From positions 173,956 through 237,955 of the forward strand of contig JAGXBC010000001.1 of assembly GCA_018971305.1 (NCBI GenBank): a stretch of 64,000 nucleotides of DNA, read 5' to 3'. The notes under the pieces are model-generated. The model was not told the DNA's origin and did not search any database. It saw only the letters and a list, made by a program, of their open reading frames with translations. A program made the position numbers and the translations under genes. Positions 2,125 to 52,638 of this stretch are shown here, piece by piece. This DNA comes from Patescibacteria group bacterium. GTDB taxonomy: Bacteria > Patescibacteriota > Minisyncoccia > UBA6257 > 2-01-FULL-56-20. Within the stretch, counting starts at the first letter, position 1, and each line of letters starts with the position of its first letter.

Positions 2125-5100
2125 CTACGTACCCTGAGCGAAGCTCGCCGAATTCAACTGAATCGGGAATAGCTGGCTCGAAGGCAGCGTAATGTTGCTG
2201 TTCGCGGCGCTATCAAGACCATCGGTGTAGAGAACATCCGTGGACCGAGTAGAGACGGTCGCAGCGAGAGACGTCACGTTCTGACCTGTAGAGGCCTGGG
2301 TCTTGGAATCGTTGACCTGCAGTGTCCAGTTCCTCGTCGAGCCGGCAGAAATCTGCTGGCCGTTAGACGTAGAACCGAAGTTGAAGGTAACCGAGCAAGA
2401 ACCCGAGCCGCCAGCGGCAACTGTCTGACATGTCGCAGCCGAGGATGTAGATTGAACCGTTCCAATGGATTGGTTGTTTTCATCCAAGATCTTGATGCCA
2501 TCCAAGAAACCAGTGCCGGAAACTGCGTTACCAGTGAAACTCACAACCATCGTGTTCAGAGCAACCGCACCCGCGCTGTCAGCCGAGAAGCTAAGAGTCG
2601 CGAAGTTGTCGGAAGTGCTCTTGGACCGTCCGGTTGTGGAACCCAAGGCCGTCGCGGCAAACGAAAGTTTGCTCCTCAAGACGGTCTGAGTGTTGCCGGC
2701 AGCAGAAGTGGTTGATACCGAAGACGTGCTGTTGGACGTAGCACCTAAGGCCGTAACAGCCGAACCATTCGCAATGTTGAACTGGTGGTTGGCATTATCC
2801 GTGGCTCCCGAAGAAGCGTAGGAAGAAGCGTCACCTTTCAAAGTAAGCGAGATGGAGTTCGCCTGCGGAACAACGAACGGAGTGGCAAAGTGGAATGTCC
2901 ATGCCCACAAGGCCGTTCCCGAAGTGACAGCCGAGCCGGCCGTGCCAACAGCCGTTGAGCCGTTGTACAAGGTCAGATTGCTGAATGTCGATTTAACGGT
3001 GGAAGTAGAAGAGACCGTGTCGGCGACCGTAAGGTCGGTGACCTTAACGTTTTCCGCGTTCGTGGTTTCCGTAAAGCGGAAGGTAGCCAAAGGATTCTGG
3101 GATGAACCCATCACAATCTGGCCAGCCGGGGCCTGCGAGGAATCGGCAGTTACCGAAACCGTCGCCTGTCCGGCAATCGTAATTCCCTGTCCAGCCGTCG
3201 AGGAACAGGTCAAGGCGTTGTAAGACGTCTGGCCCGTACCAGAGCAGGAAGAAAGGGTTGAGGCCGGGCTTACGGACGCAGCGCCGGACAGAATGTCGGC
3301 GTAGACGTCAACGTAAGTCGTACCGCCCTTCGCAACCGTGAACGGTGTTCCCGAGAACGAGTAGGAACCGCCCGAGGAAACTAACCCTTGGGTAGAACCG
3401 AACTGCGAGCCGTTAATCATAACGTGCAAGTTGCTGAGGAATGCCGTAGCGCCAGCCTTTACCGTCAAGTTGGAAACGGTCACGCCGTCAGCCGATGAGG
3501 CCGTCAAAGCGTAAGAGCCAATCTTAACGTTGGACGAAGGCGAGGCAACGGTCTGGTTGCCCAAAGCCGTGTTCTGCGCCGTCGTGAGCTGTGTGGACTG
3601 GAGCGTCAAAGACGAACCAGTTGCTCCGCCCGAAGAGTTGCTTGCGGACGAAGTCAAACCCTGCAGGTTACTGGTATTGCCAGTCAGAGAGGCAACTACC
3701 GTACCGAAGTCAGCACCAGACTGAATGTCTGCCTTTATAGACAAGACACGGGTCGTGTTCGCCGGAACTATATAGTTGATCGGCGAGGTGCCTGTACCAA
3801 AACAGTCGGTGTAGACACCACCCGTGTAAGAGGTGTTGCTACCACCGCCAACCGTAATATCACAAGTGTTCGTCGTGGCGGAAGGAGGCGTGTTGATGGT
3901 TGTACCCACCTGACCACCCGCGTCATCCGTCAAGGCGACATTTTTGACCTCGTTAGACAAGGTTGTCGTCGAATTGCCGAACGTCATCTTAAAGGTTAAG
4001 AATTTAACCTTAACCGCTTCACCCGCCGCGTAAATTGTGTACTTGGCGAGCGTCACGTTGGACTGTCCAGGAGCCAAGTTTCCAGTCGGCGTATCGGCCG
4101 CCTGAGAAACGGTTATTTGACCCTGCTGGATTGAAACCTGCGTGCCAGTGTTGGACGAGCCGGCGATCGGCACGTTGTACTGGGAGTCCACAGCGTAGAG
4201 ATCGTAAGAGTTCAAGATCTCAAACTGGAAGTTCTTGTTCGGAGAACCCATAACATCGGAGTAAACCTGAATGTTATTGGAGCCCGTGTTCAGAGTCCCT
4301 GGGTTGGACGACATATCAAAGTAGGCAGTTCCATCAGCCCCAACTGAGGCCAAGGTAGTGCCAGCCTGCGTGCCGTTAACCATTATTTTCACGTTGCGGA
4401 GGTCGGCGTTATTGGCCGAACCGATAACCGTGAACTTCAATCCTTTCAGCCAAACTTTGCTGTTGGAGACGCTGAAGTTCCAGGAACCGACAATGTTGTT
4501 CTGAGTACCGGCAGTGTCAGTCGTCGCAATGGAACTGGACGTAATTGTCAAGCTCGCAATGGAAGGATTGGTGACTGTCGTTACCGTGAACGTATTGCCG
4601 CTAAGAGGGAAGGCTCCGGAGGCCGAAACCGCCGCGCCGCCGCTCGTCGCGGAAACATTGCTTGCCGCTGCAATCGCGAATCCGACCGTGTTACCAGCCG
4701 TAAGACCCGTTGAAGGGTCTATGGCAAGCCACAAGGTGCGGGTGGCCCCGGCGTTTACGTTCAAATTCAATCCGGCGAAGTCAATGACTCCGTTGGAGAT
4801 GGAATTGTACTGATAAAGCACCTGGCCGTTTTCAACCAAGTAAGCTCCGGAAATGGAGCTATCGGAGATGACTCCGGTCTTGTTGAATTTCAATTCGGAA
4901 ACCGTAACTGCGCCAGAATTGCCTGCGGTCAAGTTCACGGCCATAACCGGAACGCGAGCCGCGGCAGTTGAAGCACTCGAAATGAGCGCGCCGGCTGATG
5001 GGTTCTGTGAAGACAGAGACACAACTAAACCGGAAGCTGGAGCAGGAACACTCGGAGTACTACTAGTAGAAGGAGTACTGGCCGACAAAGACGCGACGTA

Positions 5101-5692: not shown

Positions 5693-5716
5693 AAAAAACT
5701 CGCTGTTCAAGGCGAG
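5693..5716 (-). terminator. Rho-independent terminator-like hairpin (minus strand)
   Basis: The minus strand reads ctcgc-cttgaaca-gcgag followed by tttttt. It lies about 220 nt downstream of the stop of the 5935..6615 gene. Confidence 0.4.
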
Positions 5717-5934
5717 GCTGTCTAAGTTTAAAGATAAACCATACAACTATGACCAAAAAATATCATAGCCGCTAGCTTTTATCTTCGTGTCCGTTTTCAC
5801 GAACTGGTCCAGCCTCACACTGAACCTCTATTAAATTCTAGCAGAACCAAGAGCTAAAAGATGTGCATAAACCGACAGAATCAAGCTTTTGGTTAGCAAT
5901 ATATATAACGATGCTAAGGGCGAAAGGTTACCAA

Positions 5935-6615
5935 CTATTGTTGCCTACTTATCGTCCTATAGTAAGTAGACGGCCCACCATTTCCGGCCCTTTCTATGAG
6001 CCCCCGGGAAAGCAAATTTTGCATATCGTAACGCAACGTTCTTTCGCTAACACCAGGCAATATACCCTGTATTTCCTTCAATCGGCAATTGCCGTTTTGC
6101 CGTATTCTTTCCAATATTGCCGATTGCCGCATTTCCGATTTAATATAGTTGCCGCTTCCATTATCTAATTGACCATAATCAGAGTTATCCCGATTAACAG
6201 TGTTTTCAACGGTTAAATCTTTTGCCGTATTATCTTCAGTTGAATTAGTAATAGATGATTTATCGTATCCGGAAAATATATCATCCAATTTTATCTCATC
6301 TATTTTTGCCGGATTATCATATTCGGCAATTGCCGAATTTAGACCATATAATTCAGATATCACCTTATCAGAATTTGCCGGATGGAAAACCCCGACATCA
6401 GCTCCAAATCTTAGCAATCTTTCTAGGTTATCAGATGCCGAAAACATCGCAACCCGATCTTCGGAGGAAAATGCCCCCAAGACGATAAGCGCCGCGTCTT
6501 CCGCTTTATCCCTAAAACTTCCACTATTGACAGAGGACGCCATTCTCCAGACGGCATAGGCAACTTCATATGCTTTCTTTGTTAAAAACTTATCCTGATT
6601 ATTTATCCTGGACAT
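5935..6615 (-). CDS. Hypothetical protein with C-terminal DeoR-type winged-helix HTH
   Basis: 226-aa ORF. The C-terminus (RQSAILERIRQNGNCRLKEIQGILPGVSERTLRYDMQNLLSRGLIER) looks like a DeoR/wHTH DNA-binding domain. The N-terminal part is unrecognised. Confidence 0.6.
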   Translation of the reverse strand: MSRINNQDKFLTKKAYEVAYAVWRMASSVNSGSFRDKAEDAALIVLGAFSSEDRVAMFSASDNLERLLRFGADVGVFHPANSDKVISELYGLNSAIAEYDNPAKIDEIKLDDIFSGYDKSSITNSTEDNTAKDLTVENTVNRDNSDYGQLDNGSGNYIKSEMRQSAILERIRQNGNCRLKEIQGILPGVSERTLRYDMQNLLSRGLIERAGNGGPSTYYRTISRQQ

Positions 6616-28556: not shown

Positions 28557-29549
28557 ATGAAACCAATTCTTGTTTCCGGCATCCAGACTTCAGGCCGATT
28601 GCACCTTGGCAATTATTTGGGCGCCTTAAAAAATTTTGTTGACCTGCAAAATTCGGGAAAGTACGATTGTTATTTTTTCTTAGCCGACTTACATTCATTA
28701 ACCGAGGCGTTCAATCCAGAAGATAAACATAAACAAGTCATTGAACTGGCCGCGGATTTTCTGGCTGCCGGCCTGGACCCCAAGAAATCCGTTATCTTCC
28801 AGCAATCGCAGGTCCCGGCGCATACGGAACTCGGATGGATTTTCAATACGATTACGCCATTCGGAGAATTAAACAGGATGACACAGTTTAAAGAGAAATC
28901 CGACGCGCAAAAAGAAAATGCGAATGTCGGGCTTTTAACTTATCCCACTCTGATGGCCGCCGACATTCTTTTATATGACGCCAAATTTGTGCCGGTTGGC
29001 GACGACCAAAAACAGCATTTGGAACTCACGAGAACTATCGCCCGTAAATTCAACGCCAAATTCGGCGAAACTTTCACGGAGCCACAACCACTATTTACAG
29101 CAGCCACTCGGGTGATGAACCTTGGCGAACCGGAGCGAAAAATGTCCAAGTCGCGCTCGCATCCACAAAACGTGATTTTCGTTGACGACTCGCCGGAAGA
29201 AATTTCCGCCAAAATAAAATCCGCCGTAACAGACTCCGGCTCGGAGGTTAAGTACGACATCAAAAACAAACCCGCAATAAGCAACTTGCTTACTATCTAT
29301 TCCGCCCTAAGCGGAGAAGCCATCCCTAAACTGGAGAAATATTTCACAGGGAAAAAGTATTCAGAGTTCAAAGTTAAGCTTGCAGAGCTGATATCCGATT
29401 ACTTCGCGGATTACCGCAAGAAGAAAAAGTTATTACTCGCCAAACCGCAGACACTTATAACAACGCTCAAATCCGGTTCAGCCAAAGCGGCAAAAGTTGC
29501 CGACAAAAAGATACACGAAGTTAAAAAAATAATAGGATTGGCGATTTAA
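28557..29549 (+). CDS. trpS: Tryptophan--tRNA ligase
   Basis: 330 aa. Contains GIQTSGRLHLGNYLGA (HIGH-type motif) and KMSKS. Confidence 0.95.
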   Translation: MKPILVSGIQTSGRLHLGNYLGALKNFVDLQNSGKYDCYFFLADLHSLTEAFNPEDKHKQVIELAADFLAAGLDPKKSVIFQQSQVPAHTELGWIFNTITPFGELNRMTQFKEKSDAQKENANVGLLTYPTLMAADILLYDAKFVPVGDDQKQHLELTRTIARKFNAKFGETFTEPQPLFTAATRVMNLGEPERKMSKSRSHPQNVIFVDDSPEEISAKIKSAVTDSGSEVKYDIKNKPAISNLLTIYSALSGEAIPKLEKYFTGKKYSEFKVKLAELISDYFADYRKKKKLLLAKPQTLITTLKSGSAKAAKVADKKIHEVKKIIGLAI

Positions 29550-32500
29550 ATCTTCCTTACAGCCAACCAGGAATCCGCGCCGTTAACCTTCGTTTCCGCC
29601 TCCGCTTCAAATTTTTCCGATTTTTTATATTCTATCGCTTCGGCTCCGACCTCAACTTTCAAAACTTTTTCGTACTTGTAGATTGCGAGACGCACTTCCG
29701 CCGGCAACTGGGCCATCAATATCATTTTATCCTTCGGCTTAAGCCCGGATTTTTGCCGCAGCTCCTGAACGGCCCTTATTATCTCCCGCAATATACCCTC
29801 TTCGCGCAGTTCCGGCGTGACAACGGTATCCAGTTCAATTTCTTCCTTAAATCTGGCACTGAAAACAACTTTCTTAATATTCACCTCTTCTGCTAAAATA
29901 CCAAGCAATTCTTTGGGAATCTTCAGCTTTCCGGTTTTAACCCTGAGTTCACCGAGAGGCTGACGGACTTTTATTCCCGCCTCCGCCCGCTTGGCCAATC
30001 CCAAACTAGCCAAACGCCTCACTTCGGCCATTCCTTCCAGTAATTTAGAATTTTGAGTTTTTAATTTTGGTTTTGTCTCCGGCCAATCTTCCAAATGAAC
30101 TGATTCCTGCGTTCCGTTAAGTTCTCCGTAAAGTAATTCCGAAAAGAATGGTGCGAAGGGAGCTGTTAGTTTCGCCGTTTCACGCAGAACCAAGCCGAGT
30201 GTGGCGCAAGCCGAATCAAAATCCTTGGCGCTCTCCGGTTTTTGCAAGCGCCGGCGCGAACGGCGGATATACCAGCGCGACAGATCGTCAACCAACTTCT
30301 CTATAACAAGCGCGGCTTCTCTTATTTCGTATTTATCCAGGTGCTTTGTGGTATCGGCAACAGTTTCTCCGAGCCGAGACAGAATCCATTTGTCCAGAAC
30401 ATTGGTCGAGGATGGAATTTTATCTCCCGAACTTTTCTCGCTCGCATATGTTTTATAAAATACCAAACTGTTCCAAAGAAGCATGTGCATCCTGCGGTAT
30501 GTTTTCGAAATCTCGTTCTCGTCAAAATTTTTTGTCTCGCCCGGAGGATTCACGGTATAGAAATACCAGCGGACGGCATCAACTCCGTATTTATTGATAA
30601 CCTCCCAGGGGTCAACTATATTCCCTTTGGACTTGGACATTTTCTGCCCGTGCTTATCGTTTATCAGCCCCAAAGAAACAACGTTCTTATATGGCGCCGG
30701 GTATCCCAAAGATGTAGCAACTGCAAGCAGGGTGTAAAACCATCCTCGCGTCTGATCCATTGCCTCCGAAATATAATCTGCCGGATAAGCGCGGCTTTTG
30801 TCTATAGCATCCTCATTCTCAAAAGGATAATGCTGCTGAGCGAAAGGCATTGAGCCGGAATCAAACCAGACGTCAGCTACTTCTTTGACCCGTCCTGTTC
30901 TCGCGCCGCATTGCGGGCAGGCAATATGGATACCATCGGCATATGGCTTGTGCAGGTCTATAACTCCAGTACCATCACGGGGCACTATCTTTAGAGTTAA
31001 CTCTCTTGTTTCAGCTACGCCGATAAAATCCTGGCCACGGCTTATTTTTTCCCGTATAGCGCGTTTTTCATCCCATGCTTCCGCCGCGTGCGTAAGCATC
31101 CAGATCGGATACTCATGGCTCACGAGCAGGATATTCTTGCCGCGGTATTTTTTTTCCAATTCCTGCAAAATTTCCCAAACCCGACTGCGCAAATCGCGCA
31201 GGGACTCGCCTCCTTCCGGCTTGCCCTCAAACTTTGATTCGTATGTGGGAAAAAGCTTATGGTAGCGGCTATCACGGCCCCCCTGAAGCATTGAACCCAA
31301 ATCTACCTCGCGCAGACGTTTGTCGAAAACTACTTTTTTGACGCCCAATGCCTCCGCCGCAATCTCGGCTGTTTCTTTTGTCCGGATTATGTCCGAAGAA
31401 ACGATGACGTCTATTTTTTTTCTGCTGCTTTTTAGTTTCTGCAAAAAATTTTTCGCCGACTTTTCCGCGAGCGAGCGGCCGATAACGGTCAAAGTGTTGT
31501 CTTTAGACCAACCGGAATCAATAAAGTGTTCGGCGTTGCTTTTCGCCTCTCCGTGCCGCATAACCCAATAATTATTCCTGGAACCTCCGGCAAGCTTACT
31601 GAGCTCGTCAATGCCTCCCGCCACTTCGCAGTGATTGCATTTTTTGCATTCCCAGATCGGTAACGGCGTTCCCCAGAACCGTTCACGGGAAAAATTCCAA
31701 TCTTTAACCTCACGCAGCCATTCGCCGAAACGCCCCTGTTTTACGTATTCCGGCGTCCAATTGATTTTATTGTTATTGGCTATAAGCTGCTTCCTTAAAC
31801 CGCTCATGGCTACGAACCAGGAATTTCTTGCGTAATATAGAATTGGCGTGCCGCACCGCCAGCAGTAGGGATAATCATGCTTGTAGGGAAGAACTTTCAG
31901 GAGCGAACCGCGCTGTTTTAAATGTTCAACGATGCCAGCCTCGGTTTCCTTGGACTTCGCGAACAGGCCGGAGAAACCAGAAACGTCCTTAGTGAACTTC
32001 CCAACTTCATCAACCGTGTGATACCTCGGTAAGCCGACTTTAAGTCCCAGCTGATAGTCATCTTCGCCGTACATAACCGCAGTGTGGACTACCCCGGTTC
32101 CCTCTGTCGTATTAACAAAATCGGCGTCGTAAACCTTGTACGAACTTGGCGAACGCAATGCCGGAATTTCAAAAAGCGGCTCGTAGCTCAGGCCGATAAG
32201 TTCGTTCCCCTCAAAAATCTCCCTCAGGTCGGGGGCGGAACCAAAAATAGCGGGATTATTCTTAACGGCTTCCTCAGCTACAATCCAACGCTCTATTTTC
32301 CCGTCAATCATCTTCTTCAGTACGGCGTATTTGATGTTTTTACCAACGGCCAAAGCCACATTTCCTGGGAGCGTCCACGGCGTAGTCGTCCAGGATAAAA
32401 CATACGTATCATCTCCCGCCGAGAAATATCCGCCGATTTTCTGCCCCCTCTTCAATTTGAATTTTATATAAACGGAGTCATCAGTAGTTTCTTTGTAACC

Positions 32501-33076
32501 CAAAGCAAGCTCGTGCGAAGAAAGCGACGTGCCGCAGCGCACGCACCAGGGAACTACCTTATGTCCCTTATAAAGAAGTTTTTTTGTCCAAAAGCGCTTT
32601 ATTATCCACCAAAGAGTTTCTATGTAGGAGCTTTCGTAAGTTATGTAAGGGTCTTTCAGGTCCAGCCAAAAGCCCATCCGTTTTGTGAGGCGCTCCCATT
32701 CGTCTTTGTATTCCCAGACGGACTCGCGGCATTTTTTATTGAAGGCCTCAACGCCGTAGTTTTCAATGTCCTTTTTCGTTTTCAGGCCCAATTGTTTTTC
32801 CACCCCTATCTCCACGGGCAATCCGTGCGTGTCCCAGCCGCCTTTTCTCGGAACCAAATAGCCCCGCATCGCCTTGTAGCGTGGGATTATGTCTTTGAAG
32901 GCACGAGCCAGAATATGGTGCACGCCCGGCCTGCCGTTAGCAGTTGGCGGACCCTCGTAAAATATGAACTTTTTAGCGCCTTTCCGCTTAGCGAGAGTTT
33001 TTGCAAAAATGTCGCTTTCGTTCCAAAATTTCAAAACTTTTTCCTCCTCCTTGGGAAGATTGAATTCTTCGGGCAT
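29546..33076 (-). CDS. ileS: Isoleucine--tRNA ligase (type 2) carrying an inserted histidine-phosphatase domain
   Basis: 1176 aa. Contains PPTANGRPGVHHILARA, the editing-domain segment TTPWTLPGNVALAV, KMSKSKGN and WFDSGSMPFAQ. It appears longer than the type-2 IleRS lengths I recall (from memory, not checked), and the roughly 190-aa insert between the two CxxC knuckles can account for the excess. Confidence 0.95.
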   Translation of the reverse strand: MPEEFNLPKEEEKVLKFWNESDIFAKTLAKRKGAKKFIFYEGPPTANGRPGVHHILARAFKDIIPRYKAMRGYLVPRKGGWDTHGLPVEIGVEKQLGLKTKKDIENYGVEAFNKKCRESVWEYKDEWERLTKRMGFWLDLKDPYITYESSYIETLWWIIKRFWTKKLLYKGHKVVPWCVRCGTSLSSHELALGYKETTDDSVYIKFKLKRGQKIGGYFSAGDDTYVLSWTTTPWTLPGNVALAVGKNIKYAVLKKMIDGKIERWIVAEEAVKNNPAIFGSAPDLREIFEGNELIGLSYEPLFEIPALRSPSSYKVYDADFVNTTEGTGVVHTAVMYGEDDYQLGLKVGLPRYHTVDEVGKFTKDVSGFSGLFAKSKETEAGIVEHLKQRGSLLKVLPYKHDYPYCWRCGTPILYYARNSWFVAMSGLRKQLIANNNKINWTPEYVKQGRFGEWLREVKDWNFSRERFWGTPLPIWECKKCNHCEVAGGIDELSKLAGGSRNNYWVMRHGEAKSNAEHFIDSGWSKDNTLTVIGRSLAEKSAKNFLQKLKSSRKKIDVIVSSDIIRTKETAEIAAEALGVKKVVFDKRLREVDLGSMLQGGRDSRYHKLFPTYESKFEGKPEGGESLRDLRSRVWEILQELEKKYRGKNILLVSHEYPIWMLTHAAEAWDEKRAIREKISRGQDFIGVAETRELTLKIVPRDGTGVIDLHKPYADGIHIACPQCGARTGRVKEVADVWFDSGSMPFAQQHYPFENEDAIDKSRAYPADYISEAMDQTRGWFYTLLAVATSLGYPAPYKNVVSLGLINDKHGQKMSKSKGNIVDPWEVINKYGVDAVRWYFYTVNPPGETKNFDENEISKTYRRMHMLLWNSLVFYKTYASEKSSGDKIPSSTNVLDKWILSRLGETVADTTKHLDKYEIREAALVIEKLVDDLSRWYIRRSRRRLQKPESAKDFDSACATLGLVLRETAKLTAPFAPFFSELLYGELNGTQESVHLEDWPETKPKLKTQNSKLLEGMAEVRRLASLGLAKRAEAGIKVRQPLGELRVKTGKLKIPKELLGILAEEVNIKKVVFSARFKEEIELDTVVTPELREEGILREIIRAVQELRQKSGLKPKDKMILMAQLPAEVRLAIYKYEKVLKVEVGAEAIEYKKSEKFEAEAETKVNGADSWLAVRKI
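30992..31579 (-). other. Histidine phosphatase (PGAM/branch-1) domain embedded in IleRS (about aa 500-695)
   Basis: YWVMRHGEAKSN (RHG motif), VSSDIIRTKETAEI, LREVDLG, GGESLRDLRSRV and ILLVSHEYPIWML (second His). The domain is flanked by WECKKCNHC and IACPQCG. Confidence 0.75.
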
Positions 33077-33103: not shown

Positions 33104-34072
33104 CTATTCAAAAAATCTGCTGCGTATTTTATGGGTATTGCCATGGCTCAAAAGTCCAAGATAAGCGTTAATCGTCGCTGGCGCTGGGTTGGCTATTACC
33201 ATCTTTAACATTCTTCTTCTCGTCGTTGTCCGAAAAACACGGTGATCAGGAAAATTTATCCACCCCAAAAAATCAACTCCGGACGCAATGGTATTTATGA
33301 AAATTTTATTTGGATGAAGCGTAAGTCGCAATTTATTTTCCAAAAATTCTTTTATTTTTGGAACTAGAGATTCCAGCAATCCGCGGTTCTCCGAGAAAAT
33401 AACGAAGTCGTCCGCATAACGTATATAGTGCCTTGTTTTCAGTTTGTGCTTCACAAACTGGTCAAACTCGTTCATATAAACATTTACAAAGAGTTGTGAA
33501 GTGAGGTTGCCGAGCGGTAAACCTTGTCCAGGCGCGCTTGATGAAAAACTCTCGATAACTCTTTCCAGGAGCCGCAGCGTATCAGCGTCTGGGATATATG
33601 AACGTAGAATATCAAGGAGGACGGCGTGGTCGATGTTGGCAAAAAACTTTTGAATGTCACACCTGAGAACCCAGGAGGTACGCGTATTGTTCTTACTAAT
33701 AATGCGGGCGAACGCGCGAAAACGATTCATTGCGGCATGCGTTCCTTTTCCGACTCGGCATGAGAACGAATCAGCTATGAAAGTTTTATCGAAGAACGGA
33801 TAGAGCACCCGGTAGATGGCGTGATGGAGTAAGCGGTCGCGGACGGTTGCCTTGTGGATATTCCGCGGTTTCGGGTCGCAGATGTTGAATGCTTGATACC
33901 CACCGTGTCGGTACGCACCGTTCAAAATATCCGCGCGAAGTGATAGAATGTTATCCATAAGGCGCGATTGGAACTCCTGCACATCACGTTTCCCGCTCTT
34001 GCCGCGCAAAAATTCCCTCCAGGCCTCAAGCAGGTTTTCCACGCTTATGATTTCCTCAAATTTATGAACCAT
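33104..34072 (-). CDS. DGR-type reverse transcriptase
   Basis: The track ORF is 33104..34264. The likely start is MVHKFEEIISVENLLEAWREF at 34072 (323 aa). RT motifs present are NICDPKPRNIHKATVRDRLLHHA, LGNLTSQLFVNVYM (the DGR-typical xGxxxSQ) and YIRYADDFVIF. No maturase or endonuclease domain. Confidence 0.9.
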   Translation of the reverse strand: MVHKFEEIISVENLLEAWREFLRGKSGKRDVQEFQSRLMDNILSLRADILNGAYRHGGYQAFNICDPKPRNIHKATVRDRLLHHAIYRVLYPFFDKTFIADSFSCRVGKGTHAAMNRFRAFARIISKNNTRTSWVLRCDIQKFFANIDHAVLLDILRSYIPDADTLRLLERVIESFSSSAPGQGLPLGNLTSQLFVNVYMNEFDQFVKHKLKTRHYIRYADDFVIFSENRGLLESLVPKIKEFLENKLRLTLHPNKIFINTIASGVDFLGWINFPDHRVFRTTTRRRMLKMVIANPAPATINAYLGLLSHGNTHKIRSRFFE

Positions 34073-34103
34073 CTTAATTTTCACAATAAAAATTTTCAAG
34101 TAA

Positions 34104-34460
34104 CTCCCCCCCCCCCGACACATCACGCTTCCTATCATCCAACACCTGGTAGCGGCGTACAAAACCTGGCATGAATTTCTGCCGCATGTACCCAAGGATG
34201 CGAGATACTCGTTAGGAACTAAGGTCGACGCTTCGTTTATAGAAACGATTGAAGCGGTATTCACCGCAAGCTATCTCAGTAGAGAGAGTAAACTTCCTTA
34301 TCTCGAAAAAGCTGCCGCGAAACTGGACATGGTTAAATTCTTTCTCCAGATAATCTGGGAAGTCAAGGCGCTCGACAATAAAAAATATATTACACTCTCG
34401 GAAAAGCTGGATGAAATAGGCAGAATGCTCGGCGGATGGCTTAGGAAAATGTCTACTTAA
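34104..34460 (+). CDS. avd: Avd-like four-helix-bundle accessory protein (open frame without ATG/GTG/TTG start; possibly joined to ATG 34064 across the C11 tract)
   Basis: Absent from the ORF track. My plus-strand translation is ...RHITLPIIQHLVAAYKTWHEFLPHVPKDARYSLGTKVDASFIETIEAVFTASYLSRESKLPYLEKAAAKLDMVKFFLQIIWEVKALDNKKYITLSEKLDEIGRMLGGWLRKMST*. The FPK-x-x-RY-x-LG and EIGxMLGGW pattern is typical of Avd / 23S-IVS four-helix-bundle proteins. Confidence 0.7.
   Translation, partial: LPPPRHITLPIIQHLVAAYKTWHEFLPHVPKDARYSLGTKVDASFIETIEAVFTASYLSRESKLPYLEKAAAKLDMVKFFLQIIWEVKALDNKKYITLSEKLDEIGRMLGGWLRKMST
34106..34116. repeat. C11 (G11 on minus strand) homopolymer tract at the avd 5' end / RT 5' leader
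   Basis: Read directly: taact ccccccccccc gaca. The tract separates the ATG-containing frame (ATG 34064) from the conserved avd frame by one nucleotide. Confidence 0.95.
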
Positions 34461-34624: not shown

Positions 34625-34885
34625 ATGTGCGCAAGGCCGTCCGGGCCACCATCCTTCGAGTCACAAACAAAAACCATACTCTCGGGATTGTATCGTATTC
34701 GGAATTTTGAATTCCTTAGCCTCGCACACCAAGTAGCAACAATTATGAAGCGATTAACGAATGCACGCTAGGAGAAAACCCGTCCTCCCCCATTCCGGCA
34801 GACGCCATCGCGGAATTCGATGCGCACAACCTTAGCCGTGCGCATAATATCTACTATCCATAAGGATTATATCAAAAAAATTTAA

Positions 34886-34909
34886 TGGGCCCTAACGAAT
34901 TAGGGCCCA
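34886..34909 (-). terminator. GC-rich UUCG-tetraloop hairpin about 50 nt downstream of the VR / target stop (terminator and/or DGR target-recognition hairpin)
   Basis: The minus strand reads tgggccctaa-ttcg-ttagggccca, a perfect 10-bp stem, followed by ttaaattttttt. Confidence 0.6.
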
Positions 34910-34959: not shown

Positions 34960-35580
34960 CTACTTGCTCGCGACGCGACCGTTGCGATTGAAGCCGCAGT
35001 CAAGCCAGCTCCGGCCCAGGTACCAGCGCTCGCCGTTCCGACTGAGGTAGGGAACGTTCCGGTAGCCGTTCGCGTACAGCACGACCAAACCCGGAAAATC
35101 GATGTAAACTTTTCCGAGAAGGGACATGAATACGGGGAATTCATCCTGGTGCTCAACAAGCCAAACGGCCTGCTGGTAACCCAGGACAAGATTCCGGCGG
35201 GACACGAGCCTGCGCTCGTATTCGCTGCCAACGATAGACTTCTCGTCAGAACGCAACAATGTGCCAAGACGGAGAATAACTTCATCGGTTGGCGAAGAGT
35301 CGGACTCGATTTTTTCGATCTGAGAGAACGCCCTGCGGAGTTCCTCGAGTGTCGGCTGCTTCAGGGCTGGAATCCGAACGGCGACATCTTCCATCGTCTT
35401 CCAGAATTCCAACATCTTGATCTCGGCGTTGCCGAGATAGATGTCACGGACGCCTGAAAGGTTGGTGCCGGTTGAAAGCCATTTTACAAAATCGGGCGTG
35501 CAACCATTCCGCTCAAGCGCATGATCGAATTCTGCGGCTTGGCGAGCAAACATGACGGGTTGAGACTTGTCATTAGGCAT
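34960..35580 (-). CDS. DGR variable (target) protein, 206 aa, VR at the extreme C-terminus
   Basis: ORF with a GGAGG RBS (aaaggaggacatgtcATG). The C-terminal ...VVLYANGYRNVPYLSRNGERWYLGRSWLDCGFNRNGRVASK* is encoded by the VR. No signal peptide or TM segment is visible. Confidence 0.85.
   Translation of the reverse strand: MPNDKSQPVMFARQAAEFDHALERNGCTPDFVKWLSTGTNLSGVRDIYLGNAEIKMLEFWKTMEDVAVRIPALKQPTLEELRRAFSQIEKIESDSSPTDEVILRLGTLLRSDEKSIVGSEYERRLVSRRNLVLGYQQAVWLVEHQDEFPVFMSLLGKVYIDFPGLVVLYANGYRNVPYLSRNGERWYLGRSWLDCGFNRNGRVASK
34964..35084 (-). repeat. DGR variable repeat (VR)
   Basis: Aligns to 34504-34624 at offset 460. Inside the core there are 11 mismatches, and 10 of them fall at TR minus-strand adenines (7 A>G, 3 A>T). 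Confidence 0.85.
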
Positions 35581-35725: not shown

Positions 35726-35774
35726 TGTAAATAAATCAGGTTTTCAAAGTACGCTACAATTATACACCATATTA

Positions 35775-37475
35775 CTATATTCTGTCAATAGCAGTGATTC
35801 CCAATAAATTCAGCCCTTTTTCTATGATTTTCGCCGTTATATTAATAAGCCCAAGAAGCGCGCTCCGCCGACTGGCGGATTCTTCTTTGAGTACCGGCGT
35901 GGTTTCGTATAAACGGTTAGCCAACACGGCCAGCTTATAAAGATAGTTAGCTAGGTTGCTCGTCTGCAGTGTTTCCCCACTTCGCGCCACTTCGTCGGGA
36001 AATTCAAAAATTTTCCGAGCGAGCGCAAGTTCAACATCAGAATTTAATAATGTAAAGTTCTTGCTTTTAGGTTTTAGAGCTTGGGACTTTCTTAAAATAC
36101 TCTTAAGGCGGGCATACGTGTACTGCAAATACGGCCCGCTGTCTCCGGAAAAATCCAGCATTCTTTTCCAGTCAAAAACGATGTCGGTTGTGCGTCCCTC
36201 CCGCAAATCATTGTATTTCAAGGCTCCAACGGCAACCGCCTCAGCGATTTTATCTTTTTCTTTAGCCGATAATTCTTTATTTTTTTCTTCAACAATCTCC
36301 CTCGCCAGCTTGATAGCCTTACCTAAAACCTCTTTAAGTAATATGGTCCTCCCTTCGCGTGTAGCGAGCTTTTGGCCGCTCTCCCCTAGAACCAAACCGT
36401 ATTTAACGTGCTTGAGTTCAACCCCATCGGCCAATCCAAGAATATTAGTTATGGCGAAAAGCTGTTCAAAGTGCAGAGATTGTTCGTTGCCCACAACATA
36501 TAAAATTTTCTCCGGCTTATATTTTTTGACACGGTATTCAATATTCGCAATATCGCGCGTAAGGTAAAGGGATGCTCCATCCGCTTTTTCTATTAACGCC
36601 GGAGGCAGATTGAACTTATCTAGTTTTATAACTATCGCGCCCTCGCTTTTTACGGCGACGCCGTCTTGCACAAGGCGCGAAACAAGCGGCTTCATATCTT
36701 TCTCAAAAAAGCTTTCGCCTTTCCATTCGTCGAACTCTACACCGAGCTCTTTATATGTTCTCTCGAATTCTTTAAGCGATTCTTTTTTAAACCATTGCCA
36801 AAGCTTGCGGTTTTCCTTATCGCCTTCTTCTAATTTTTTGAATTCTTCCTGGCCCTCCAGCTCCAATCCCGGGCGGGACTTCATCTCGTCGTGAAAGCGG
36901 ACGTAGAGCTTCTGCAATTCCTCTATTGGTTTTTCTTCTATCTTTTTCTTATCGCCCCACATTTTATAGGCGGCGATAAGTTTGCCGAACTGCGTCCCCC
37001 AGTCGCCCAAATAATTCCAGCGGATAACTTTATATCCCAGTGATTCAAAAACATTGGCAAGCGCCGCGCCGATTATCGTTGTCCGCAAATGGCCCACGTG
37101 CATCATCTTCGCGATATTCGGCTGAGAATATTCAACGATAACGGTTTTGCTTTTTCCAATACTTCTCTCGCCATATTTTTTTATATTCTTGGTAACCATG
37201 GCCAATTCGTTTTGCAGCGCTTCAGGTGAAAACCAAAAGTTTATAAATCCCGGCGCAGCGGCTTCAACTTTTTGGAAAAACCCAGCCGGCGCAGCGGCAC
37301 TAATTTTCTGCACCAATTCCCTGGCCAGTTCAAGAGGATTTTTCTTTTCCCGCTTAGCCAAAACCATAGCCAAGTTCGTGGAATAATGGCCGAAGTTTTC
37401 TTGTTCCGGAACTGTAACGCTAAAATCTCTGCCATCGGAAAACTCGGATAAAATTTTTATTATCTTATCTTTCAT
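35775..37475 (-). CDS. argS: Arginine--tRNA ligase
   Basis: The ORF is 35775..37502. The probable start is MKDKIIKIL. Contains SQPNIAKMMHVGHLRTTIIG (HIGH-type motif), the DALR anticodon-binding C-terminus and the terminal ...ITAIDRI. Confidence 0.95.
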   Translation of the reverse strand: MKDKIIKILSEFSDGRDFSVTVPEQENFGHYSTNLAMVLAKREKKNPLELARELVQKISAAAPAGFFQKVEAAAPGFINFWFSPEALQNELAMVTKNIKKYGERSIGKSKTVIVEYSQPNIAKMMHVGHLRTTIIGAALANVFESLGYKVIRWNYLGDWGTQFGKLIAAYKMWGDKKKIEEKPIEELQKLYVRFHDEMKSRPGLELEGQEEFKKLEEGDKENRKLWQWFKKESLKEFERTYKELGVEFDEWKGESFFEKDMKPLVSRLVQDGVAVKSEGAIVIKLDKFNLPPALIEKADGASLYLTRDIANIEYRVKKYKPEKILYVVGNEQSLHFEQLFAITNILGLADGVELKHVKYGLVLGESGQKLATREGRTILLKEVLGKAIKLAREIVEEKNKELSAKEKDKIAEAVAVGALKYNDLREGRTTDIVFDWKRMLDFSGDSGPYLQYTYARLKSILRKSQALKPKSKNFTLLNSDVELALARKIFEFPDEVARSGETLQTSNLANYLYKLAVLANRLYETTPVLKEESASRRSALLGLINITAKIIEKGLNLLGITAIDRI

Positions 37476-37866: not shown

Positions 37867-38310
37867 ATGAAAACAATCGCGGAAAACCGCCGGGCGCGGT
37901 TTGACTATGAAATATTGGAAACAATGGAAGCGGGCGTGGAGCTGCGCGGTTTTGAAGTTAAAAGCGCCAAAGCAGGAGGTTTTAATCTGGCTGGAAGCTA
38001 CGCTATTCTGAGAAACGGGCAGGCCTGGCTTATTAACTCTCAAATTCCACCATATCAGCCCAAAAACACTCCGGATGGCTATGATCCCTCCCGCTCTCGC
38101 CGCCTGCTCTTACACACATCGGAAATCATCTCCTTGGCAGGAAAACTTAAAGATAAATCGGTTCACCTGATTCCATTACGTACTTATATAAAAAATAATT
38201 TGGTAAAGATTGAACTCGGACTTGCGCGTTCACGAAAAAAATCCGACAAGAGGGAACTTATTAAAAAGCGCTCCGCAGAAAGAGAAATGATGCGGGCTAC
38301 CTCAAGGTAA
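37867..38310 (+). CDS. smpB: SsrA-binding protein SmpB
   Basis: 147 aa. Contains IAENRRARFDYEILETMEAGVELRGFEVKS and a basic C-terminal tail. Confidence 0.95.
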   Translation: MKTIAENRRARFDYEILETMEAGVELRGFEVKSAKAGGFNLAGSYAILRNGQAWLINSQIPPYQPKNTPDGYDPSRSRRLLLHTSEIISLAGKLKDKSVHLIPLRTYIKNNLVKIELGLARSRKKSDKRELIKKRSAEREMMRATSR

Positions 38311-41720: not shown

Positions 41721-41732
41721 CAATTCTGTGTC

Positions 41733-42049
41733 GGTGGAGATGGGCGGAATTGAACCGCCGTCTAAGGATTGCGCCGCTGAACCATCTACGAACGTATTTC
41801 AGTTAAGAACTGAACAAAAGCGATTCTAATTTTCGCTCCAATGCAGAATCATCCATCGGAACTACGCCTCCTTATATAAGACCGGTATTAACCTAAGAGG
41901 TCCAGATTAGCCGATCCTCCGGTGTTACGCGTAAGCGAATGCCGGAGCCGCAACTTTTGAGTTGGCAGTTATTGTTTTTTCGCGAGTTTAACGAGTCCGC
42001 CCTCGGTCCGCAAATTCAGAACGCATCCTTATCGAAGCCGATCATCCCC
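41733..42049 (-). ncRNA. ssrA: tmRNA (ssrA), about 317 nt, predicted tag ANSKVAAPAFAYA
   Basis: The 5' end GGGGATGATCGGCTTCGA pairs with the 3' end ...GGTTCAATTCCGCCCATCTCCACC, including a G3:U pair. The tag frame is ...aaaaaacaataact GCC AAC TCA AAA GTT GCG GCT CCG GCA TTC GCT TAC GCG TAA (41966..41925), which parallels the E. coli resume context. Confidence 0.85.
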
Positions 42050-52566: not shown

Positions 52567-52638
52567 TGCCCCCGCGAGGAATTGAACCTCGATCACCTCC
52601 TTCGGAGGGAGATATTCTATCCGTTGAACTACGAGGGC
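52567..52638 (-). tRNA. tRNA-Arg (anticodon CCG)
   Basis: The minus strand reads GCCCTCGTAGTTCAACGGATAGAATATCTCCCTCCGAAGGAGGTGATCGAGGTTCAATTCCTCGCGGGGGCA. Anticodon loop CTCCGAA and T-loop GGTTCAATTCC. Confidence 0.9.

Follow-up and report, generated by a model that had tools for sequence, protein, structure and literature searches.

Most diversity-generating retroelements (DGRs) described from bacteria of the candidate phyla radiation (CPR) share one published layout. In the parts of Wu et al. (2018, Nucleic Acids Res 46:11, PMC5758913) available to us, architecture B3, written TR-(avd)-RT with parentheses for the reverse strand, makes up 90% of the authors' set of DGRs from CPR; here TR is the template repeat, avd the gene of the accessory protein Avd, and RT the reverse transcriptase. 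We investigated a DGR in a stretch of 64,000 nt, hereafter the window, from a Patescibacteria group bacterium (GenBank assembly GCA_018971305.1, contig JAGXBC010000001.1, positions 173,956 to 237,955 of the forward strand), whose avd gene is interrupted at a run of 11 cytosines (C11). Compared with the B3 DGRs of that survey and with the CPR "DGR clade 2" of Roux et al. (2021, PMC8144416), and within what their accessible text covers, the locus has the same gene order, the same strands, a Patescibacteria host and a small target without a recognizable domain. In that text, neither survey mentions a repeat in avd or avd alleles with a disrupted frame, and the accessible part of Roux et al. (2021) does not mention Avd. 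The DGR, its Avd, the B3 layout and repeat-mediated phase variation are all already known. What appears to be new, within the literature searched and these two surveys, is their combination: the accessory gene of a hypermutation system carries a repeat that is both conserved and hypermutable, across more than 100 CPR lineages.

In the DGR of Bordetella phage BPP-1, both Avd and RT are required for cDNA synthesis, and an Avd pentamer binds RT. The locus in the window resembles this Avd-bRT system (4DWL; cryo-electron microscopy structure 8UB7) in the four-helix bundle of Avd, in its matches to the bAvd and DivGenRetAVD families and in the adenine-specific differences between TR and the variable repeat (VR). 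However, avd, TR and brt lie on one strand in BPP-1 (avd-TR-brt, architecture B1), and the Avd sequences are only 17-18% identical. We know of no leader repeat in the BPP-1 avd gene.

Two other kinds of known system were compared. Poly-G/C phase variation, as in Campylobacter jejuni, Neisseria meningitidis, Haemophilus, Bordetella and the glpK gene of Mycobacterium tuberculosis, likewise involves a homopolymer of G or C, 7-12 nt long, close to the 5' end of a coding sequence; alleles of every one of the three frames occur among strains, genomes that are otherwise identical differ in repeat length, and repeat-free alleles are locked ON. The genes known to be switched in this way are those of surface structures, restriction-modification systems and metabolism, whereas the gene concerned here encodes the accessory factor of a hypermutation machine, and its hosts are uncultivated CPR bacteria. 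The second kind, +1 frameshifting at CCC-C or poly-proline sites and transcriptional slippage at homopolymers, shares with this locus a C run that encodes PPP and a one-base excess as the commonest out-of-frame state. In contrast to those systems, the related avd genes share no fixed offset and lack a stimulator next to the tract; many of their alleles are in frame or -1, and (CA)n variants occur. The literature searched on phase variation, homopolymers, frameshifts, simple-sequence repeats and contingency loci in DGRs, and on phase variation in Patescibacteria, yielded no paper linking a repeat to avd, although Paul et al. (2017, Nat Microbiol) may mention one.

Reading Frame and Protein Identity of Avd

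The original prediction placed an Avd-like frame on the plus strand behind the C run, and all of its coordinates were correct: an ATG at 34064, the RT ATG at 34072, a TAA at 34101, C11 at 34106-34116 and the avd stop at 34458-34460. Read from 34104, the avd frame translates as LPPPRHITLPIIQHLV...RKMST before its stop codon. It was also rightly said to contain, after the TAA, no ATG, GTG or TTG until Met-89, which lies 43 codons from the stop (open reading frame 34329-34460); for this reason, non-canonical or downstream initiation in the window was rejected as a general explanation. The frame of the ATG at 34064 translates as MNHLNFHNKNFQVTPPPPTHH... and stops after 36 codons. Removal of one C joins it to the avd frame, as predicted, and four records with C10 carry the intact gene of 131 aa.

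The identity of this frame was borne out by profile searches and by a model of the four-helix bundle. It matched the whole NCBIfam model NF033474 DivGenRetAVD (positions 1-104) with an E value of 1e-21 and 76.6-77.1 bits, just below the equivalog cut-off of 80, and Pfam PF22296 bAvd with 56.6 bits (cut-off 40). The AlphaFold (AF2) model of the repaired 131-aa protein had a pLDDT of 87.8 and four helices (residues 23-41, 44-69, 73-99 and 105-130). Residues 1-22, which precede helix 1, were of low pLDDT and are predicted to form a disordered leader. The model superposed on the Bordetella phage Avd 4DWL with a TM score of 0.87 and a root-mean-square deviation of 1.8 Å, and it also matched the Avd chains of the DGR ribonucleoprotein 8UB7. 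By profile and predicted fold, then, the downstream frame is a true Avd.

The start of the gene was located by comparison with homologues. Their N-termini have the consensus PPPRxxLPIIQHL and keep the motif M..LNFH..(T/S)PPPR..LPIIQHL. The in-frame C10 product, MNHLNFHNKNFQVTPPPRHITLPIIQHL..., agrees with them, e.g., with MDNKLNFHKNFSKEAPPRFNLPIIQHL and MNSPVTPPRHLTLPIIQHL; thus the ATG at 34064 is the real avd start and the C run encodes the conserved PPP. Within the gene, the C11 tract of the window occupies codons 15-18, and PPP corresponds to codons 15-17. The avd model of NCBI in the window record (MBU6500401.1, 112 aa) instead begins MTLPIIQ, a start that coincides with the in-frame ATC at 34122.

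The Tract in Other Records of the Window Strain

An exact look-up of the RT protein identified GCA_028865265.1 (JAGWKQ010000001.1, 319,837 nt), in which the tract is C10 and avd is called as an intact bAvd gene of 131 aa. The tract was its sole difference from the window over 12,969 and 20,396 nt (0 mismatches, 1 gap), and a second NCBI assembly has the same Avd of 131 aa. Three NCBI accessions exist for the Avd of this strain: MDE2015099.1 and MDE2226527.1, both 131 aa, come from the 319,837-nt contig, and MBU6500401.1 comes from the 319,838-nt contig, which is the version in the window. C10 is likewise the length in two independent Logan assemblies (SRR32006849 and SRR32006840), which show 0 mismatches and 1 gap against the window over 9,203 and 5,239 nt, VR included. 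The tract is therefore in frame in 4 of 5 records of the strain, and the missing start codon of avd results from a single extra C. The in-frame length is C10; the C11 of the window either represents a minority OFF allele or is a miscalled consensus of mixed reads. An assembly error, one of the explanations originally listed, is partly supported for the window record by the four C10 records with an intact gene.

Conservation of the Repeat and Distribution of Its Frames

From 160 related loci, 154 avd copies were classified by the sequence at the leader site and by frame, either in frame with the upstream start (ON) or out of frame (OFF). A C run of 6-12 was present in 129 copies, with C9-C10 as the modal length (54 ON, 75 OFF), and 7 copies had (CA)n of 17-27 nt at this position (2 ON, 5 OFF), while 18 had no repeat (17 ON, 1 OFF). 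In total, 136 of the 154 copies carried a C6-12 run or (CA)n at the leader codon position, 116 of them C8 or longer, and the repeat-bearing copies comprised 56 ON and 80 OFF alleles (59% out of frame). The repeat-free copies included interrupted C-rich versions, such as ACC CCA CCA CCC CCG in L045, all of which were in frame. Their only "OFF" member (L071, MGJF01000003.1) is a scaffold gap of N10 at the tract site, about 20 nt upstream of the avd LPIIQ codons, where the assembler appears to have failed. When copies at least 95% identical were collapsed, giving 129 clusters, the presence of a repeat was associated with the OFF state (Fisher's exact p = 2e-4). The 108 C-tract clusters comprised 48.5 ON, 38 with a +1 offset, 15.5 with a -1 offset and 6 unclear. 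No stop codon was found in the avd core of any of the 154 copies.

Several observations indicate that the repeat is conserved as DNA and not only as protein. The uninterrupted run was kept across lineages with only 50-72% Avd identity. Codon usage does not explain it, because CCC makes up only 21.5% of the proline codons in the open reading frames of the window and 31.5% of those in avd cores. Nor does the tract arise by coincidence: C11 is the sole C or G run of at least 8 in the 64-kb window, where the next longest is 7. About five such runs lie elsewhere in 648 kb of related loci (L005:6782, L033:10129, L075:8184, and L076:841 and 6967); these were set aside, as none is in an avd gene and they have no common context. 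One locus, L082 (CAVYJB010000001.1), contains two avd copies, at 4085-4432 and 5694-6062, 1.6 kb apart, each with C11 at the leader site.

Length Polymorphism between Near-Identical Loci

Loci whose 600-nt flanks were at least 97% identical formed 17 groups, and the repeat length differed in five of them, with flanks 100% identical across each differing pair. The window (C11, OFF) differed from L001 (C10, ON), L026/L129 (C8, ON) from L134/L137 (C9, OFF), and L156/L041 (C9, ON) from L060 (C10, OFF). L033 (C10) and L145 (C11) were in two different OFF frames, and L157 (17 nt of CA repeat, ON) and L042 (19 nt, OFF) differed by one CA unit. In full-locus alignments within such groups, most of the differences other than the repeat clustered in an interval of some 100 nt that begins 0.85-1.0 kb downstream of it and corresponds to the VR. 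Several of the discordant pairs, including those from the Hainich samples and the two NCBI versions of the window contig, probably derive from overlapping read sets that were assembled differently, and this is what mixed reads at the tract would produce.

In a separate case, the same contig of about 308 kb from SPRUCE Minisyncoccia was assembled from different samples at 307,902, 307,903, 307,904 and 308,631 nt (L009/L092/L166/L167). Since the DGR locus is identical among these assemblies, other indel-variable sites exist elsewhere in that genome.

Tract State and Variation of the VR

Five strains whose RT proteins occur on many independently assembled contigs were looked up without regard to tract state. 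Three of them were OFF. In the SPRUCE-peat Minisyncoccia strain (RT P0171; C8, -1), 11 records were read from 19 contigs on record, and the whole locus was 100% identical across the 9 that were aligned. The VR was also identical in the Jorgensenbacteria strain (RT P0145; C9, +1; 4 of 15 contigs) and in the Harrisonbacteria strain (RT P0146; C8, -1; 5 of 7 contigs). The other two were ON, and their VRs varied: by 2-19 differences in Giovannonibacteria CP066687 (RT P0192; C10; 6 of 13 contigs) and by 6-19 in the strain with RT P0214 (C9; 7 of 11 contigs). In both, contigs broke at VR or TR. The VR was therefore unchanged in 3 of 3 OFF strains and variable in 2 of 2 ON strains, a comparison of five strains that is only suggestive of a tie between tract state and DGR activity.

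The first canonical start codon of the window allele is Met-89, and 27 of the 80 OFF alleles have none before residue 32. In 20 of the 80, the codon of Leu-22, with which the Avd profile begins, is itself a TTG or is replaced by an ATG. These include the groups of L025, L033 and L034, which all have TTG there and all show VR variation despite an OFF consensus. This coincidence was noticed post hoc, and it suggests that leaky downstream initiation at Leu-22 may supply Avd in the three groups.

In two further strains, other changes were observed. The avd core of L196-L205 (RT P0228) is frameshifted at a T7 run in 10 of 10 contigs (AAGTTTTTTTCCAAATAG vs. KFFLQI in relatives), yet the VR differs by 11-19 nt between co-occurring sub-strains. 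The TR is usually regarded as invariant. Between samples of one strain (L189 vs. L190/L191/L194), five substitutions occurred inside the TR (1240-1368), at locus positions 1264-1342.

Proposed Phase Variation of Avd and Its Alternatives

Among the explanations originally listed, slippage-based phase variation is the one that the comparative data favor, at the level of the clade. We consider it somewhat probable, from these sequence comparisons, that slippage of the repeat switches Avd, and hence DGR mutagenesis, on and off. The C run at the PPP codons of the leader would act as a hypermutable simple-sequence repeat. Slipped-strand mispairing would alter it by one base, or by one CA unit in the (CA)n lineages, and each change would move the Avd bundle into or out of frame with its start codon. 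In the window strain, C10 would be ON and C11 OFF; from the C11 allele, no Avd would be made, because no canonical start precedes Met-89. By analogy with BPP-1, OFF cells would halt mutagenic retrohoming and keep the VR frozen until the tract slips back, and ON cells would diversify it. Switching of this kind would be reversible and frequent within populations, and would control DGR activity.

Several features of the locus and its relatives are typical of a contingency locus: an uninterrupted repeat in the 5' coding region, length differences between near-identical genomes, alleles in all three frames and an intact remainder of the gene. The repeat is placed in the N-terminal leader, which is disordered and can absorb changes of 3 nt; such leaders are the usual position of phase-variable repeats. 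Two repeat chemistries, the C run and (CA)n, occupy the same site, and alleles without a repeat are locked ON. A broader proposal, which we put forward more tentatively and hold to be somewhat short of probable, is that the avd-leader repeat serves as a stochastic, heritable on/off switch of DGR hypermutation across a large CPR clade. Most cells would then keep a frozen receptor variant, a slipping minority would re-diversify, and the length from C8 to C12 would tune the readiness to switch.

Several points weigh against phase variation. To our knowledge, the requirement for Avd has been established only in the Bordetella phage DGR. A symmetric switch predicts equal offsets, but the +1 alleles outnumber the -1 alleles (binomial p = 0.004 for the cluster counts above). 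The C11 of the window record may be a mere consensus error, given C10 in the other four records, and the VR is identical in all five records although the strain is ON in four. Conversely, the VR varies despite an OFF consensus in L025/L126/L127 (C10, +1), L034/L142 (C10, -1) and L033/L145. The OFF alleles of the three strains described above are fixed across many samples and runs, and could equally represent inactivated DGRs.

How cells hold a DGR in check once it has yielded a useful variant is still to be explained. In the accessible text of Roux et al. (2021, PMC8144416), many DGRs in nature are classed as "inactive" and no mechanism is given. If phase variation of Avd is true, a repeat switch in an accessory gene would be a simple genetic answer for the DGR-rich CPR bacteria, and it would be a mutable switch that controls a mutator. 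Tract length modulo 3 would then predict the activity state of a DGR in metagenomes from sequence only. In practice, over half of these elements will have their avd overlooked or shortened by gene callers and DGR finders, and the "polishing" of such tracts erases biological information.

One alternative is programmed recoding, according to which the out-of-frame state, mostly +1, is the normal one, and +1 ribosomal slippage of tRNA-Pro on CCC-C, or slippage of RNA polymerase, sets a low dose of Avd. CCC-C sites and poly-proline stalls are shift-prone. The +1 alleles are 2.5 times as common as the -1 alleles, L010 (C7) and L012 (C10) are both offset by +1 although their tracts are 3 nt apart, and the VR varies in the L025 group though all three of its records are +1. 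However, no single offset is conserved, since in-frame alleles form the largest single class of dereplicated C-tract clusters (48.5 of 108) and -1 alleles exist too. The (CA)n repeats at the same site are not ribosomal slip sites, and the VR of the +1 Jorgensenbacteria strain is identical in 4 of 4 records read. Nor does a stop codon or another stimulator adjoin the tract: the stop of the ATG frame is mostly 17-18 codons downstream (22-23 in the window), and stop-codon-stimulated +1 frameshifting in particular was rejected for lack of an adjacent stop. Programmed frameshifting, another of the explanations listed for the window, is thus weakly disfavored by the offsets, by (CA)n and by the missing stimulator, and we regard recoding as unlikely.

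An equally improbable alternative is that the PPP codons merely happen to be a C run, which mutates often as a neutral hotspot, and that out-of-frame copies are DGRs being lost without any selected switch. Consistent with decay, the VR of the three OFF strains is unchanged across samples in which the OFF alleles are fixed, the avd core of L196-L205 carries the second frameshift at its T7 run, and the VR of the window strain is invariant. On the other hand, all 154 avd cores are free of stop codons though 52% (80/154) are out of frame at the repeat, which argues for continued purifying selection and therefore for periodic expression. Neutral decay also sits poorly with an uninterrupted run that has been kept in lineages of only 50-72% Avd identity where CCC usage is 21-31%, with the independent (CA)n type at the same site, and with the in-frame state of the repeat-free copies, some of them interrupted C-rich sequences.

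A purely technical artefact would mean that Illumina assembly miscalls long C runs, that all avd genes are really in frame and that the repeat has no regulatory meaning. This seems plausible for the window record: C10 is in frame in 4 of 5 records of the strain, and the NCBI versions differ by exactly 1 nt (319,837 vs. 319,838), as if one had been polished from the other. Further, three of the five polymorphic groups may stem from overlapping read sets assembled differently, and the scaffold gap of L071 lies exactly at the tract. The artefact is not plausible for lengths that were reproduced in up to 11 independent assemblies, as the same out-of-frame length recurs in many assemblies and runs (C8 in 11 records, C9 in 4 and C8 in 5). 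An out-of-frame share of 59% among repeat-bearing copies is far beyond a plausible rate of consensus error, and a 2-nt difference of one CA unit is no homopolymer error. Left without explanation would be why PPP is written as CCCCCCCCC in most lineages and as (CA)n in others. As an account of the whole clade, we therefore consider the artefact very unlikely.

Least credible, indeed barely so, is that the tract functions through its complement, a G run or (TG)n, in the leader of RT mRNA or TR-RT RNA (structure, protein binding or antisense control of avd) with the avd frame as a side effect. Read on the RT strand, the tract does precede the RT start by 22-44 nt, and by geometry it is part of any TR-RT transcript, antisense to avd; a promoter-like site lies upstream of TR. 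However, C/G runs and CA/TG repeats share nothing other than slippage, and the tract is always within the avd leader at the PPP codons. Near the RT start there is only one promoter-like site, and the tract is not in its -35/-10 spacer. No Rfam family was found in the region.

Anatomy of the Locus

In its layout the locus is an ordinary CPR/Patescibacteria DGR and belongs to architecture B3, with target gene and VR, TR, avd on the opposite strand, and RT (table 1). It is complete and lies in a Patescibacteria genome, with ileS, argS, smpB and the transfer-messenger RNA (tmRNA) as neighbors. The layout had been called unfamiliar relative to the canonical avd-TR-RT arrangement; it is in fact the published B3 type. 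A scan of GTDB species representatives with a profile built from Avd homologues gave 80 loci, and in 72 of these an RT, complete or partial, was head-to-head with avd on the opposite strand. An inversion or misassembly was rejected as the cause of the opposite-strand avd, both on account of this recurrence and because the arrangement is B3. Because of this geometry, a TR-to-RT transcript would be antisense to avd, and this holds for the whole B3 class, not for the window alone.

Table 1.— Features of the DGR Locus (Positions in the Window)
Feature	Coordinates	Strand	Remarks
avd gene	34064..34460	+	Intact 131 aa if the tract is C10; interrupted in the window by a +1 shift within the tract
avd start codon ATG	34064..34066	+	Opens the predicted disordered leader MNHLNFHNKNFQVTPPPR, 21-22 residues; leader motif kept in homologues
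TAA in downstream avd frame	34101..34103	+	Closes the avd frame directly upstream of the tract in the C11 allele
Poly-C simple-sequence repeat	34106..34116	+	C11 in the window, C10 in four sister records; encodes PPP(R) of the Avd leader; proposed phase-variation switch
avd stop	34458..34460	+	
DGR reverse transcriptase	33104..34084	-	322 aa from ATG 34072; 326 aa from GTG 34084 (NCBI, MBU6500400.1)
Template repeat (TR)	about 34624-34498	-	About 127 nt; on the strand opposite avd, with its end about 38 nt away from the avd stop
Variable repeat (VR)	about 35084-34958	-	3' end of the target gene
DGR target gene	34960..35580	-	Open reading frame of 206 aa; the public record has 197 aa
Terminator-like hairpin with T-run	34886..34909	-	Downstream of the target gene; consensus scan only
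Promoter-like site upstream of TR	34846..34875	-	Candidate start of a TR(-RT) transcript antisense through avd; consensus scan only, 9/12 matches
Promoter-like site within RT coding region	33921..33949	+	Candidate avd promoter, about 115 nt upstream of the avd ATG; consensus scan only, 9/12 matches, TG-extended

RT matched RVT_1 with an E value of 1.6e-23. Its ATG at 34072-34070 on the minus strand shares the sequence atgaaccat (34064-34072) with the avd start. The RT start is probably the GTG at 34084 (VKIKMVHKFEE) rather than this ATG. The GTG start is the one annotated by NCBI, and it gives a head-to-head overlap of 21 nt with avd. In relatives, the starts of avd and RT abut or overlap, and a 21-nt overlap (ATG-N15-CAT) was the commonest single value among the starts picked by script.

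TR and VR are repeats of 127 nt, 334 nt apart, that adjoin RT. Their alignment contained 11 differences, 10 at TR adenines and one T>C, and the VR spans the last 40 or so codons of the 206-aa target frame (35580-34960). The T>C difference, at about 34553 in TR and about 35013 in VR, is not at an adenine; such non-A substitutions are frequent in CPR DGRs according to the accessible text of Wu et al. (2018, PMC5758913). The 206-aa target protein had no match in Pfam or NCBIfam.

Besides the promoter-like sites in table 1, a perfect sigma-70 consensus (TTGACA, 18-nt spacer, TATAAT) was located at 35759-35788 on the minus strand, where argS has its 3' end; the target gene begins about 180 nt downstream of it. 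The Rfam scan of the window, which had no family match in the DGR region, recovered the tmRNA at 41732-42049 on the minus strand (121 bits), about 3.4 kb from smpB (37867-38310, plus strand), and one tRNA at 52567-52638 on the minus strand. In the precomputed Pfam hits, the isoleucyl-tRNA synthetase at 29546-33076 (minus strand, 1176 aa) contains PF00300 His_Phos_1 between two tRNA-synt_1 segments, which would be an unusual insertion within an aminoacyl-tRNA synthetase.

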